Positions 1 to 7,000 of a stretch of 7,000 bases of DNA are shown piece after piece (the stretch's first letter is position 1; each line of letters begins with the position of its first letter). The notes under the pieces are model-generated. The model made no database searches and was not told the origin of the DNA. It saw only the letters and a list, made by a program, of their open reading frames with translations. Source of the DNA: Eledone cirrhosa. Lineage: Eukaryota. A program made the translations under genes and the position numbers. The stretch covers positions 1 through 7,000 of the forward strand of contig CAXHJY010001333.1 of assembly GCA_964016885.1 (NCBI GenBank). The letters are read 5' to 3'.

Positions 1-3000
1 ACCTTTACCCCCACACCCACCTCTGCCCCCAGGGTTACACAACCAACACCTTTACCCACACATCCACCTCTGCCCTTAGGGTTACACAACCAACACCTTT
101 ACCCACACAGCCACCTCTGCCCCCAGGGTTACACAACCAACACCTTTACCCACACAGCCACCTCTGCCTCCAGGGTTACACAACCAACATCTTTACCCAC
201 ACAGCCACCTCTGCCCCCAGGGTTACACAACCAACACCTTTACCCACACAGCGACCTCTGCCCCCAGGGTTACACAACCAACACCTTTACCCACACAGCC
301 ACCTCTGCCCCCAGGGTTACACAACCAACACCTTTACCCACACAGCCACCTGTGCCCCCAGGGTTACACAACCAACACCTTTACCCACACAGCCACCTCT
401 GCCCCCAGGGTTACACAACCAACACCTTTACCCCCACAGCCACCTCTGCCCCCAGGGTTACACAACCAACACCTTTACCCACACAGCCACCTCTGCCCCC
501 AGGGTTACACAACCAACACCTTTACCCCAGACAGCCACCACTGCCCCCAGGGTTACACAACCAACACCTTTACCCACACAGCCACCTCTGCCTCCAGGGT
601 TACATAACCAATACCTTTACCCCCACAGCCACCTCTGCCCCCAGGGTTACACAAACAATACCTTTACCCACACAGCCACCTCTGCCCCCAGGCTTACATA
701 ACCAATACCTTTACCCCCACAGCCACCTCTGCCCCCAGGGTCACACAACCAATACCTTTACCCACACAGCCACCTCTGCCCCCAGGGTTACACAACCAAT
801 ACCTTTACCCCCACAGCCACCTCTGCCCCCAGGGTTACACAACCAACACCTTTACCCACACAGCCACCTCTGCCCCCAGGGTTACATAACCAATACCTTT
901 ACCCACACAGCCACCTCTGCCCCCAGGGTTACACAACCAATACCTTTACCCACACAGCCACCTCTGCCCCCAGGGTTACACAACCAATACCTTTACCCCC
1001 ACAGCCACCTCTGCCCCCAGGGTTACACAACCAACACCTTTACCCCACACAGCCACCTCTGCCCCCAGGGTTACACAACCAACACCTTTACCCACACAGC
1101 CACCTCTGCCCCCAGGGTTACACAAACAACACCTTTACCCACACAGCCACCTCTGCCCCTAGGGTTACACAACCAATACCTTTACCCCCACAGCCACCTC
1201 TGCCCCCAGGGTTACACAACCAACACCTTTACCCCACACAGCCACCTCTGCCCCCAGGGTTACACAACCAACACCTTTACCCACACAGCCACCTCTGCCC
1301 CCAGGGTTACACAACCAACACCTTTACCCACACAGCCACCTCTGCCCCCAGGGTTACATAACCAATACCTTTACCCCCACAGCCACCTCTTCCCCCAGGG
1401 TTACACAACCAATACCTTTACCCACACAGCCACCTCTGCCCCCAGGGTTACATAACCAATACCTTTACCCCCACAGCCACCTCTGCCCCCAGGGTTACAC
1501 AACCAATACTTTTACCCACACAGCCACCTCTGCCCCCAGGGTTACACAACCAATACCTTTACCCACACAGCCACCTCTGCCCCCAGGGTTACACAACCAA
1601 CACCTTTACCCACACAGCCACCTCTGCCCCCAGGGTTACATAACCAATATCTTTACCCACACAGCCACCTCTGCCCCCAGGGTTACACAACCAATACTTT
1701 TACCCACACAGCCACCTCTGCCCCCAGGGTTACACAACCAATACCTTTACCCCCACAGCCACCTCTACCCCCAGGGTTACACAACCAACACCTTTACCCC
1801 ACACAGCCACCTCTGCCCCCAGGGTTACACAACCAACACCTTTACCCACACAGCCACCTCTGCCCCCAGGGTTACACAAACAACACCTTTACCCACACAG
1901 CCACCTCTGCCCCTAGGGTTACACAACCAATACCTTTACCCCCACAGCCACCTCTGCCCCCAGGGTTACACAACCAACACCTTTACCCCACACAGCCACC
2001 TCTGCCCCCAGGGTTACACAACCAACACCTTTACCCACACAGCCACCTCTGCCCCCAGGGTTACACAACCAACACCTTTACCCACACAGCCACCTCTGCC
2101 CCCAGGGTTACACAACCAACACCTTTACCCACACAGCCACCTCTGCCCCCAGTGTTACATAACCAATACCTTTACCCCCACAGCCACCTCTGCCCCCAGG
2201 GTTACACAAGCAATACCTTTACCCACACAGCCACCTCTGCCCCAGGGTTACATAACCAATACCTTTACCCCCACAGCCACCTCTGCCCCCAGGGTTACAC
2301 AACCAATACCTTTACCCACACAGCCACCTCTGCCCCAGGGTTACATAACCAATACCTTTACCCACACAGCCACCTCGGCCCCCAGGGTTACACAAACAAC
2401 ACCTTTACCCACACAGCCACCTCTGCCCCTAGGGTTACACAACCAATACCTTTACCCCCACAGCCACCTCTGCCCCCAGGGTTACACAACCAACACCTTT
2501 ACCCCACACAGCCACCTCTGCCCCCAGGGTTACACAACCAACACCTTTACCCACACAGCCACCTCTGCCCCCAGGGTTACACAACCAACACCTTTACCCA
2601 CACAGCCACCTCTGCCCCCAGGGTTACATAACCAATACCTTTACCCCCACAGCCACCTCTGCCCCCAGGGTTACACAACCAATACCTTTACCCACACAGC
2701 CACCTCTGCCCCAGGGTTACATAACCAATACCTTTACCCCCACAGCCACCTCTGCCCCCAGGGTTACACAACCAATACCTTTACCCACACAGCCACCTCT
2801 GCCCCCAGGGTTACACAACCAATACCTTTACCCCCACAGCCACCTCTGCCCCCAGGGTTACACAACGAACACCTTTACCCACACAGCCACCTCTGCCCCC
2901 AGGGTTACACAACCAACACCTTTACCCCCACAGCCACCTCTGCCCGCAGTGTTACACAACCAACACCTTTACCCACACTGCCACCTCTGCCCCCAGGGTT

Positions 3001-4690
3001 ACACAACCAACACCTTTACCCCCACAGCCACCTCTGCCCCCAGGGTTACACAACCAACACCTTTACCCACACAGCCACCTCTGCCCCCAGGGTTACACAA
3101 CCAACTCCTTTACCCACACAGCCACCTCTGCCCCCAGGGTTCCACAACCAACACCTTTACCCACACAGCCACCTCTGCCCCCAGGGTTACACAACCAACA
3201 CCTTTACCCCCACAGCCACCTCTACCCCCAGGGTTACACAACCAACACCATTACCCACACAGCCACCTCTGCCCCCAGGGTTACACAACCAACGCCTTTA
3301 CCCACACAGCCACCTCTGCCCCCAGGGTTACACAACCAACGCCTTTACCCACACAGCCACCTCTGCCCCCAGGGTTACACAACCAATACCTTTACCCACA
3401 CAGCCACCTCTGCCCCCATGGTTACACAACCAGCACCTTTACCCACACAGCCACCTCTGCCCCCAGGGTTACACAACCAACACCTTTACCCCACACAGCC
3501 ACCTCTGCCCCCAGGGTTACACAACCAACACCTTTACTCACACAGCCACCTCTGACCCCAGGGTTACACAACCAACACCTTTACCCCACACAGCCACCTC
3601 TGCCCCCAGGGTTACACAACCAACACCTTTACCCCACACAGCCACCTCTACCCCCAGGGTTACATAACCAACACCTTTACCCACACCTCCACCTCTGCCC
3701 CCAGGGTTACACAACCAACACCTTTACCCCACACAGCCACCTCTGCCCCCAGGGTTACACAACCAACACCTTTACCCCCACAGCCACCTCTGCCCCCAGG
3801 GTTACACAACCAACACCTTTACCCACACAGCCACCTCTGCCCCCAGGGTTACACAACCAACACCTTTACCCCACACAGCCACCTCTGCCCCCAGGGTTAC
3901 ACAACCAACACCTTTACCCCCACAGCCACCTCTGCCCCCAGGGTTACACAACCAACACCTTTACCCACACAGCCACCTCTGCCCCCAGGGTTACACAACC
4001 AACACCTTTACCCCACACAGCCACCTCTTCCCCCAGGGTTACACAACCAACACCTTTACCCCACACAGCCACCTCTGCCCCCAGGGTTACATAACCAACA
4101 CCTTTACCCACACAGCCACCTCTGCCCCCAGGGTTACACAACCAACACCTTTACCCCACACAGCCACCTCTGCCCCCAGGGTTACACAACCAACACCTTT
4201 ACCCCCACAGCCACCTCTGCCCCCAGGGTTACACAACCAACACCTTTACCCACACAGCCACCTCTGCCCCCAGGGTTACACAACCAACACCTTTACCCCA
4301 CACAGCCACCTCTTCCCCCAGGGTTACACAACCAACACCTTTACCCCACACAGCCACCTCTGCCCCCAGGGTTACATAACCAACACCTTTACCCACACAG
4401 CCACCTCTGCCCCCAGGGTTACACAACCAACACCTTTACCCACACAGCCACCTCTGTCCCCAGGGTTACACAACCAACACCTTTACCCCACACAGCCACC
4501 TCTGCCCCCAGGGTTACACAACCAACACCTTTACCCCACACAGCCACCTCTGCCCCCAGGGTTACATAACCAACACCTTTACCCACACAGCCACCTGTGC
4601 CCCCAGGGTTACACAACCAACACCTTTACCCCACACAGCCACCTCTGCCCCCAGGGTTACACAACCAACACCTTTACCCCACACAGCCAC
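1..4690. repeat. 47-bp tandem repeat array (minisatellite/satellite), consensus ACCTTTACCCACACAGCCACCTCTGCCCCCAGGGTTACACAACCAAC, ~99.5 copies, open at the left edge
   Basis: Parsed unit by unit: 99 complete units over 1-4669 (77 x 47 bp, 19 x 48 bp with an extra C, 3 x 46 bp lacking a C) plus a partial unit at 4670-4690. Most units differ from consensus by 0-2 changes. Consensus composition is A13 C22 G5 T7 with no CpG. The array ends abruptly into unique sequence at 4691. Confidence 0.99.
3815..4431. repeat. 285-bp (6-monomer) higher-order tandem duplication inside the array
   Basis: Units at 3815-4099 and 4100-4384 have the same ordered variants: 47 consensus, 48, 47 with C11, 47 consensus, 48 with CTCTT, 48 with ACATAA. 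The identical minus-strand ORFs 3944..4141 and 4229..4426 are offset by exactly 285 bp. Confidence 0.93.
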
Positions 4691-5196
4691 ACCCCTCCCG
4701 CCTATTGCTGTCATTCCAATTGATAATATTCTGTCTTTTCATTACATAAAAAAATATAAAAATTTGGCAATGAGCCTAATAAAAAAAAAAAGTCAATAAT
4801 AATTTTCTATATTTGTTCGAAAGGAAGTATTGACTGTCATTTCAACTCTCTTCTTTGTAACTCTTCCTTTTAAGAGCTCCGACTTATCTCTTTAGGCTCA
4901 TTACAGTTTAAAGAGCACCACTAAGCAGTCTTTTGTGTGTCTACTGAAAGGAAATGAGAATAAGTAAAGTCCTACTGAACCAGTCTATATTAGAAACCAG
5001 CTTTAATCTGGAATGTTAACCCATTTCACAGCATTCACAATTTAATAATAAATGTTTCAGTGCGGACACACGAAGGACCAAGAGCTAGTCAAATGTTAAT
5101 TCATAACAAACCACATGAAACTAGCTTTCATTCTATGTTATAGAGTAGTTTAGTTTTAAATGTTTATATTTATCTAAAACATCCACCAACCTGGCT

Positions 5197-5391
5197 TAAT
5201 AATAGTTTCTGATTTAGACACAAGGCCAACAATTTGGAGGGAAGGGAAAGTCAATTAAATCTACCTCAGTGTGTTACTGGTACTTTATTTTATTGACCCC
5301 GAAAGGATGAAAGGCAAAGCTAACCTTGGCGGGATTTGAACTCAGAATGTAAAGAGCCGTAACTTAATGCCACAAAGTATAATGTCCGACG
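5197..5391 (-). mobile_element. tRNA-derived CORE-type SINE (octopus OR1/OR2-like), 5'-truncated and diverged
   Basis: The minus strand reads ...CTTTACATTCTGAGTTCAAATCCCGCCAAGGTTAGCTTTGCCTTTCATCCTTTCGGGGTCAATAAAATAAAGTACCAGT...AAATTGTTGGCCTTGTGTCTAAATCAGAAACTATTATTA. This contains a Pol III B-box followed by a body I recognise from memory as the abundant octopus SINE (GCCTTTCATCCTTTCGGGGTCGATAAA-AAGTACCAGT) and a short (ATT) tail. The family name was not verified by a search. Confidence 0.85.
5331..5343 (-). promoter_or_regulatory. RNA polymerase III B-box of the SINE
   Basis: The reverse complement of GGGATTTGAACTC is GAGTTCAAATCCC, which matches the GTTCRANNC consensus. No A-box is seen upstream on the minus strand. 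Confidence 0.75.
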
Positions 5392-5500
5392 ATGGTGGTG
5401 ATATGATGATGGTGGAGGTGGTGGTGATGATGGTGGTAATGATGATGGTATGGTGATGATATAGTGGTGGTGGTGGTAAGGGTGATGGTGATGATGATGA
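5391..5500. repeat. Degenerate compound trinucleotide microsatellite (GAT)n/(GGT)n
   Basis: GATGGTGGTGATATGATGATGGTGGAGGTGGTGGTGATGATGGTGGTAATGATGAT...GGTGATGGTGATGATGATGA. It accounts for the poly-His/Pro/Ser ORF 5320..5529(-). Confidence 0.92.
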
Positions 5501-5572
5501 ATGCTATATTCTCCTTCCCCTTCATTCAAAAGAGGAACGCCTGAAACCTTCTCAGTAAATAAATGTATTGAA

Positions 5573-5762
5573 TCCTTCCCTGGATTCTGTGGAACACTGT
5601 CTCACAGTTGGTGGGTTTTACTGCCCTTAATCTTAGGTTCATTATATGTACCTCCAATATACTGGGGTCCTTCCCTGGATTCTGTGGAACACTGTCTCAC
5701 AGTTGGTGGGTTTTACTGCCCTTAATCTTAGGTTCATTATATGTACCTCCAATATACTGGGG
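5573..5762. repeat. Perfect head-to-tail duplication of a 95-bp unique sequence
   Basis: 5573-5667 and 5668-5762 are identical: TCCTTCCCTGGATTCTGTGGAACACTGTCTCACAGTTGGTGGGTTTTACTGCCCTTAATCTTAGGTTCATTATATGTACCTCCAATATACTGGGG. Confidence 0.97.
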
Positions 5763-5844
5763 TTAGAAGGGTTAACTCAGATCATTATAATTGTATGATA
5801 AAACTTGTCCTTGTACCAAACTGTGTAAAAGTATACATATATAA

Positions 5845-6999
5845 AAAGGTAAAGGGGATGCTCTGGAGAGGAGCAATTATAGGGGTATAAAACTGATAGA
5901 TCAGGTTAGGAAAGTGGCAGAAAGGATTTTAGCACAACTAATTAGAGAAAGGGTCAAACTAGATGAGATGCAGTTTGGTTTTGTGCCTGGGAAGAGTACA
6001 ACAGATGCCCTCTTCTTGGTGAGACAATTGCAAGCGAGGTTCTTAGAGAAAAATAAGCCACTATACTTAGCCTTTGTTGACCTAGAGAAGGCCTTTGATA
6101 GGGTACCCCGATCTGTCATCTGGTGGTCCCTAAGGAAGCTAGGTGTTGAGGAATGGCTTGTGAGGACAGTGCAAACTTTGTACAGAGGTGCTCTCAGTAA
6201 AGTCAAGGTAGGAATGAAGTTTAGTGAGGAATTCCAGATACAAGTAGGAGTACATCAGGGTTCGGTCCTCAGCCCGCTCTTGTTCATTATAGTCCTCCAA
6301 GCCATAACAGAGGAGTTTAAGACTGGCTGTCCATGGGAACTTCTCTATCCTGACGATCTGGTTCTTATAGCAGAATCAGTAGAGGAGCTAGAGAATAAAT
6401 TCTGGCTATGGAAACAGCAGTTGGAAGCAAGAGGACTGAGAGTGAATCTAGCTAAGACAAAAGTGTTAATGAGTAGAAAAGAGGAGAAAACCCTGATTCT
6501 GTCAGGGAAATGGCCATGTTCGATATGCAGAAAAGGAACTGGCATAAATTCTATAAAATGCACACAATGCAGATCCTGGGTACACAAGAGATGTAGCGGG
6601 ATAGCAGGCAAACTAACAGGTAGGGAGAAATATGTATGCAGTAGATGTACAGGGAAATTAGACAGTAGAAGTCGCATTGATAGACACATTTTTCAAATGC
6701 AGGAGGGCGCTATAGAAGTGGTGGATAGCTTCCGGTACCTAGGAGATCAGATTAGCATGGGAGGAGGGTGTTCCGAGGCCATAGTATCTAGAATAAGGAC
6801 GGGTTGGAAGCTTAGGGAGCTGCTTCCTCTGTTGCCGAAGAAGGGTTTCTCCCTGCGTACGAAAGGCCGGTTGTATGATGCCTGTGTGAGGAGCGCGATG
6901 CTGCATGGTAGTGAGACATGGGCAGCAACTGCAGAGCATATGCGACGGCTGGAGAGAAATGAGGCAAGCATGCTCCGTTGGATGTGCAGTGTAAATGTG
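5845..6999 (+). CDS. Partial LINE reverse transcriptase ORF (385 uninterrupted codons, frame +1), lacking its N-terminus and with no stop in the window
   Basis: Manual translation: KGKGDALERSNYRGIKLIDQVRKVAERILAQLIRERVKLDEMQFGFVPGKSTTDALFLVRQLQARFLEKNKPLYLAFVDLEKAFDRVPRSVIWWSLRKLGVEEWLV...GVHQGSVLSPLLFIIVLQAITEEFKTGCPWELLYPDDLVLIAES...GLRVNLAKTKVL...[PHD]...EVVDSFRYLGDQI. Motifs: QFGF 5971-5982, DLEKAFD 6079-6099, QGSVLSPLLF 6256-6285, YPDD 6346-6357, KTK 6454-6462, FRYLG 6730-6744. An in-frame TAA lies at 5842-5844 and the first in-frame ATG is at 5968. Probably a non-autonomous copy. Confidence 0.9.
6517..6648 (+). other. PHD-type zinc finger (C4HC3) encoded in-frame inside the RT domain
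   Basis: CSICRKGTGINSIKCTQCRSWVHKRCSGIAGKLTGREKYVCSRC = C-x2-C-x10-C-x2-C-x4-H-x2-C-x14-C-x2-C. It carries the PHD hallmarks W-x-H-x2-C and aromatic-x-C-x2-C. Confidence 0.9.
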
Positions 7000-7000
7000 C

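Follow-up and report, generated by a model that had tools for sequence, protein, structure and literature searches.

The window analysed here (7,000 nucleotides of Eledone cirrhosa DNA) ends in a LINE copy whose reverse transcriptase (RT) contains a PHD finger between RT motifs 6 and 7, an arrangement that is real, ancient and under selection, and apparently undescribed in the searchable literature. By analogy with R2, it is proposed that the finger is a target-gripping module that would act mainly on DNA during target-primed reverse transcription, a reading to which a probability of about 0.45, i.e. somewhat below one half, is given.

The frame +1 stretch 5845-6999 is open for 385 codons (385 aa) and encodes a non-LTR reverse transcriptase, with a Pfam match to RVT_1 on residues 9-213 of the translation (E=6.3e-28) and R2 and L1 as the best PDB sequence matches (Table 1). 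The copy is taken to be 5'-truncated at about 5845, because the contigs of other copies run into differing sequence before this position. At position 6349 the four runs compared show mostly the letter giving YADD, which is also what the RTs of relatives read at the catalytic motif where the window copy has YPDD. Judged from the sequence, this change probably inactivates the window copy, which furthermore does not have three bases after 6806 that some contigs of other copies show; the copy is probably dead, an ordinary decayed insertion. In run X1 the summed contig depth (which is not equal to copy number) goes from ~10 on the unique flanks to between 2e5 and 1e6 across the LINE without a dip over the finger, and therefore points to a high-copy family that carries the finger. 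The nearest relative with a eukaryote name is Octopus bimaculoides (62% over the region).

Upstream of the LINE, positions 1-4690 are filled by a 47-bp satellite (99.4 copies, 95% matches), over which the long ORFs are repeat artefacts; its unit includes AGGGTTA, which resembles the TTAGGG telomere hexamer. A very high-copy SINE-like repeat, with the top contig depth in all four of four runs, occupies 5167-5409 and runs into a (GATGGT)n tract at 5391-5500, while a 95-bp exact tandem duplication (5573-5763) lies just upstream of the truncated 5' end of the LINE. An Rfam scan of 4600-7000 gave no match, the SINE-like repeat included.

Table 1 Features of the LINE copy in the window (positions are those of the window)
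Feature	Position	Strand	Remark
LINE copy, RTE-type, 5'-truncated	5845..7000	+	RT palm, finger insert, thumb; 3' end beyond window edge
Catalytic motif, reads YPDD	6346..6357	+	other copies mostly differ at 6349
RT motif 6, GLRVNLAKTK	6433..6462	+	
Motif 6-7 linker, 89 aa, residues 207-295	6463..6729	+	R2 6a loop site by alignment
C4HC3 PHD finger, Pygopus-like, basic	6517..6648	+	Pfam PHD, profile and fold matches
RT motif 7, FRYLG	6730..6744	+	

The original prediction was that the 89 codons between motifs 6 and 7 hold an intact C4HC3 finger with all eight zinc ligands, and this was borne out: the ligands are C225, C228, C239, C242, H247, C250, C265 and C268 (from 6517 to 6648), with the spacing of a PHD finger, and the codon for W245, two residues before the His ligand, lies at 6577-6579. 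On the linker alone, the Pfam PHD profile is matched over its whole length (E=6e-08, 33 bits versus a cut-off of 24). C1 and RING-like identities were also considered, and their Pfam matches remained below their own cut-offs. Of the two domain matches that had been anticipated, the PHD hit was thus obtained, but RVT_1 was not split by the insert, as it is matched in one stretch that ends before the finger. The expectation that such linkers normally measure ~20-30 aa agrees with the 25-30 aa found in finger-less relatives, relative to which the net insert in the window copy amounts to ~64 aa.

In the AlphaFold model of the RT (pLDDT 78), the motif-6 strand leads to the finger, after which come a hairpin, then motif 7 and then the thumb helices, and the finger is predicted to loop out of an otherwise complete RT, as had been envisaged. 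Comparison of this model with the R2 and L1 RT structures gave an E of 7e-12 in Foldseek and a Z of 16.3 in VIA (rmsd 5.8, 301 aligned). With the finger modelled on its own (pLDDT 79), PHDs topped both fold searches, Pygopus being first, albeit with modest scores: rank 1 was 2vpg in Foldseek (E 8e-3) and 3zpv in VIA (Z 6.0, rmsd 2.6, 53 aligned). As far as the models go, the insert has a real PHD fold.

The place of the insert has a precedent in R2. According to the consulted part of PMC10499050, 6a of R2Bm is inserted between RT motifs 6 and 7 and reads an upstream target motif via His673/Lys675, deletion of its residues 672-677 blocks nicking, and the authors term it unique to R2; in R2Tg and R2Pm, 6a wedges into the upstream DNA (PMC11601368, excerpt). 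Residue 666 of R2Bm aligns to window residue 208, which places 6a around residues 214-219, shortly ahead of the finger (222-268), where the correspondence reaches beyond the alignment (which stops at residue 208) and assumes that the chain numbering equals that of the paper. In an alignment with a finger-less RT, the gap likewise falls in the motif 6-7 loop. It is therefore, from alignment, likely that the finger sits at the same loop site as 6a of R2.

The finger is not particular to the window. Among 190 RT regions compared (protein relatives plus the window), the linker measures 84-94 aa in 89 and 25 aa in 88, the latter nearly all from one catfish family, Hemibagrus, while 13 have no findable motif 7. 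Of the 89 long linkers, 86 fit the strict finger pattern, one has lost a ligand and two have a wider His-Cys spacing. Seven of the ligands are invariant in the 88 relatives and the eighth is kept in 87 (i.e. 99-100%). Averaged over columns, conservation reaches 0.77 in the RT core, 0.68 in the finger and 0.66 in motif 7 plus thumb, while the flanking linkers have 0.45-0.47. In metagenomes, the region lies in one ORF in 25 of 79 loci, with a long linker in 24 and a short one in 1. For the 24 long loci plus the window (n=25), pN amounts to 0.34 for the finger (0.41 with the ligands excluded), 0.27 for the RT core, 0.37 for the thumb and 0.58-0.61 for the flanking linkers, versus a pS of about 0.8, which is saturated, so that the informative quantity is the regional contrast in pN. 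In all 300 of 300 pairs (which are not independent) pN of the finger is lower than pS, also with the ligands left out, and the within-family variants in the finger, among those listed, are three, all synonymous. The finger is under purifying selection and as constrained as the RT thumb. Named hosts of finger-bearing copies are Octopus bimaculoides, O. vulgaris (partly decayed), Gordionus sp. and Neoarius graeffei. Some of the records carry odd labels: two host gene models have taken in the LINE, namely a catfish 'slc22a21 isoform' (P0003) that consists largely of a finger-bearing APE-RT and an Octopus protein (P0152) in which the RT is joined to a PF07766 domain, both probably annotation errors, and two finger-bearing LINE RTs are labelled as bacterial MAG proteins (P0099 and P0150; Ca. 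Thiodiazotropha and Herbaspirillum), which are probably animal DNA mis-binned into MAGs.

For the phylogeny, 361 RT regions (193 long, 168 short) were dereplicated at 80% to 86 long and 24 short ones. Eight short rows were dropped, seven of which combined a Hemibagrus-type linker with low core identity and were judged to be mis-spliced gene models, the eighth being a finger-bearing copy with a partial deletion. The RT tree, built without the insert, contains 38 of the 86 finger-bearing rows and 16 finger-less rows, and all 38 finger-bearing RTs fall on one side of a single branch (100/97, and 100% of 200 bootstrap trees), i.e. they form one clade. With midpoint rooting this clade is nested among finger-less lineages, because of which the finger was likely gained once, with no sampled loss, in a tree whose root is not inferred, in which two long finger-less branches meet, and whose sampling is centred on the query and one finger-less RT.

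All six full-length finger-bearing relatives that were scanned have one ORF with Exo_endo_phos (APE), RVT_1 and then PHD, and in 16 of 25 loci a very short 3' UTR with a simple-repeat end, e.g. (TGA)n, was recognised by eye; of the other nine, three end at a contig edge, five have an ORF that is broken earlier and one is unclear. A single APE-RT ORF, a very short 3' UTR and a simple-repeat tail are the hallmarks of RTE elements. The element is of RTE type by anatomy, the tree being one without named Repbase or Dfam references in which the finger-less rows are unnamed or hypothetical proteins. As for the origin of the finger, a profile of 24 fingers has Pygo1 as its best match (E=1.7e-8). Kapitonov and Jurka reportedly found PHD fingers in ORF1 of CR1/L2 elements in 2003. 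In Table 1 of PMC4120745 (seen in part), the best PDB match of CR1/L2 ORF1 PHDs is 2vpb or 3zpv (both Pygo) in seven of nine PHD rows. Because these PHDs match the Pygopus PHD just as the present finger does, sequence comparison suggests capture of a Pygo-like PHD of the CR1/L2 ORF1 kind from another LINE as the simplest origin. The donor was not found in the atlas searches, the matches being PHD clusters without taxa.

The resemblance to Pygopus allows the binding surface to be compared. According to an extract of PMC2726290, the K4me2 pocket of Pygo1 has W366, Y341 and D352 as walls and V350 and A356 as floor, and E360 and I357 mutants of Pygo lose binding, the E360 mutant showing background H3K4me3 binding. 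Of the 86 dereplicated fingers, 80 fit the pattern used for a census of these positions, whereas six have another spacing. The equivalent of W366 is W in 79 of the 80, that of V350 is V in 73, that of A356 is S or A in 78, and that of I357 (in the T3 pocket of Pygo) is I in 74. At the Y341 equivalent, Y, W or F is found in 63/80 and Y, W, F or H in 70/80, while 10/80 have a non-aromatic residue (D, S or N). The acidic residues present a different picture: the equivalents of E349, D352, D355 and E360 are G, variable, N and variable, respectively, with an acidic residue at the D352 equivalent in 2/80 and at the E360 equivalent in 3/80, and in 71/80 fingers there is no Asp or Glu in the Cys2-Cys3 loop plus Cys3+1, where Pygo1 has five. 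The net charge of the finger is +2 to +12 (mean +6.8) and positive in 89/89, or +1 to +13 and positive in 80/80 over the dereplicated set.

Hence, of the features of an H3K4me reader, the Trp and the hydrophobic/aromatic cage are present and the acidic residues for the H3 tail are not; going by aligned residues, a Pygo-type hydrophobic methyl-lysine pocket persists and the acidic H3-binding face is absent. The Trp two residues before the His, which had been pointed out as a likeness to H3K4me3 readers, is kept in 86/88 relatives. The Ser three residues before Cys3 was indeed present, but the doubt about specificity that had been attached to it is eased, as Pygo1 binds H3K4me2/3 with an Ala (Ala356) at this place. 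When the finger was modelled in complex with the unmethylated H3(1-31) tail (locus L086), the prediction scored 0.01, a value obtained with the alignment unused and for a peptide, a class outside the calibration. By eye, none of 33 long proteins has an H3-like N-terminus. Separately, one locus on a viral-collection contig (L096:501-935) fuses an H3-like tail to unrelated sequence with no recognisable histone core, which is possibly a histone mimic, and H3-like genes on four further viral-collection contigs (L090, L101, L103, L110) have a tail with an insertion past the K27 position.

Following these results, the finger would keep hold of the DNA beside the nick while target-primed reverse transcription proceeds, like 6a of R2, with the insert facing the upstream target DNA as 6a does. 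The conserved K222, R229/K230, K248, R249 and R267 would make contacts to the DNA backbone that are not sequence-specific, while the pocket of the invariant Trp245 might stack on a base, pack on the RT or add a weak histone contact. DNA gripping is favoured because the site has a precedent of DNA contact and the surface is basic. Against it, a 2018 review (PMC6222470, in the portion consulted) has only two DNA-binding PHD fingers, both atypical, whereas the present finger is a canonical C4HC3. In addition, a strongly kept hydrophobic pocket is what a histone reader predicts, and a pocket needs a ligand; the nuclease is an RLE in R2 but an N-terminal APE in RTE, so that the path of the target DNA may differ; and basic charge has other causes in proteins that handle nucleic acids, e.g. 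RNA binding.

It is possible, though doubtful, that the finger is a histone reader instead, which would bind the H3 tail (probably at methylated K4) via the Pygo-type pocket and steer insertion by chromatin state. Its top sequence and structure matches are the H3K4me readers Pygo, BPTF, TAF3 and KDM5B, four of the five K4me2 pocket positions of Pygo1 have like residues, the equivalent of I357 is widely kept, canonical PHDs usually bind H3 (PMC6222470, same portion), and Metcalfe and Casane proposed general genome targeting for the PHDs of LINE ORF1 (PMC4120745, in part). However, the equivalents of E349, D352, D355 and E360 are mostly non-acidic while binding by Pygo needs E360, a finger with a net basic charge would be expected to repel the H3 tail, which is basic too, and one wall of the pocket is non-aromatic in a minority of the fingers. 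The 3' flanks of the loci, viewed by eye, have no shared target, which speaks neither for nor against a chromatin bias. Of the targeting idea in the original prediction, target engagement thus remains plausible, but histone reading is so far not supported, given the missing acidic residues and the basic charge of every finger. Somewhat less probable still is an internal role, in which the finger would bind the element's own RNA (the template or its short 3' end) or brace the palm-thumb junction, and thereby increase processivity or cis preference with no contact to the target. A basic surface is as compatible with RNA as with DNA, the elements have one ORF and no ORF1 chaperone, and the invariant Trp could pack on the RT; yet finger-less relatives with the same single-ORF plan manage without it, and what R2 does at this site is to contact target DNA. 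That the insert is a neutral passenger or artefact, i.e. a chance host fragment or copy-specific insert without function, is very improbable: although the window copy is decayed, the near-invariance of the ligands in 88 relatives rules out the copy-specific or neutral insert that had been allowed for, and the low pN of the finger compared to ~0.6 in the linkers, its position below pS in every pair, and the synonymous nature of the listed variants all answer the question of selection in the same direction.

The DNA-gripping and H3K4me-reading roles can be combined, which leads to joint nucleosome engagement. Tentatively, the motif 6-7 loop of non-LTR RTs could then be a reusable targeting socket, occupied in R2 by a loop that reads DNA and in the present RTE lineage by a captured PHD, which would engage nucleosomes with its basic face on the DNA and its Trp pocket on methylated H3K4. 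If true, a chromatin reader would be built into the palm of the polymerase and bias where the LINE lands, and the loop would lend itself to grafts by which RTE-based gene writers could be retargeted. For where APE-type LINEs insert, the endonuclease alone is usually held responsible (a model cited in PMC10499050, consulted part), and an old, conserved and folded domain at the 6a site in molluscs, horsehair worms and fish suggests that the RT can carry a module for targeting or gripping as well. As the finger measures ~50 residues, sister lineages without it can serve as controls and full-length ORFs are available in intact form, the role of a LINE PHD becomes directly testable. A loop that tolerates a 64-aa domain is also of practical interest, because RTE elements are being developed into gene-insertion tools (PMC13708176, in part).

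Openly searchable papers (to which Repbase Reports, Dfam, subscription journals and patents do not belong) yielded no account of an RTE RT with a PHD inside it, and the terms 'PHD', 'zinc' and 'finger' are absent from the accessible text of three mollusc or RTE papers (PMC11203168, PMC10294476, PMC13155389); by automatic annotation, many of these proteins are already listed in databases with RVT_1 plus PHD. With RTE-clade LINEs of the RTE-1/BovB type, the finger-bearing lineage shares one ORF of ~1030-1140 aa with APE and then RT, a short 3' UTR and a simple-repeat tail, and it differs by the PHD, ~64 extra residues inside the RT. For the octopus element RTE-2_OV, the available part of PMC9115989 describes a C2H2 finger and mentions no PHD domain. 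R2 has in common with it an insertion between RT motifs 6 and 7, but 6a is a short loop, and the element that bears it is site-specific and uses an RLE (PMC10499050 and PMC11601368, as excerpted), whereas here a whole two-zinc domain is found in an element that uses an APE and gives no indication of site specificity. The PHDs of CR1/L2 are likewise LINE-borne with Pygo entries as best PDB matches, but they lie in ORF1 or upstream of the APE (PMC4120745, part seen), while the window finger lies inside the RT and in another LINE group. Finally, the finger shares with the PHD of Pygopus, an H3K4me2/3 reader (PMC2726290, extract), the YPC start, the Val/Ala floor of the pocket and the Trp wall, from which it departs in a loop that is two residues shorter, in the loss of the acidic H3-contact residues and in a charge of about +7 versus about -6 in Pygo1.
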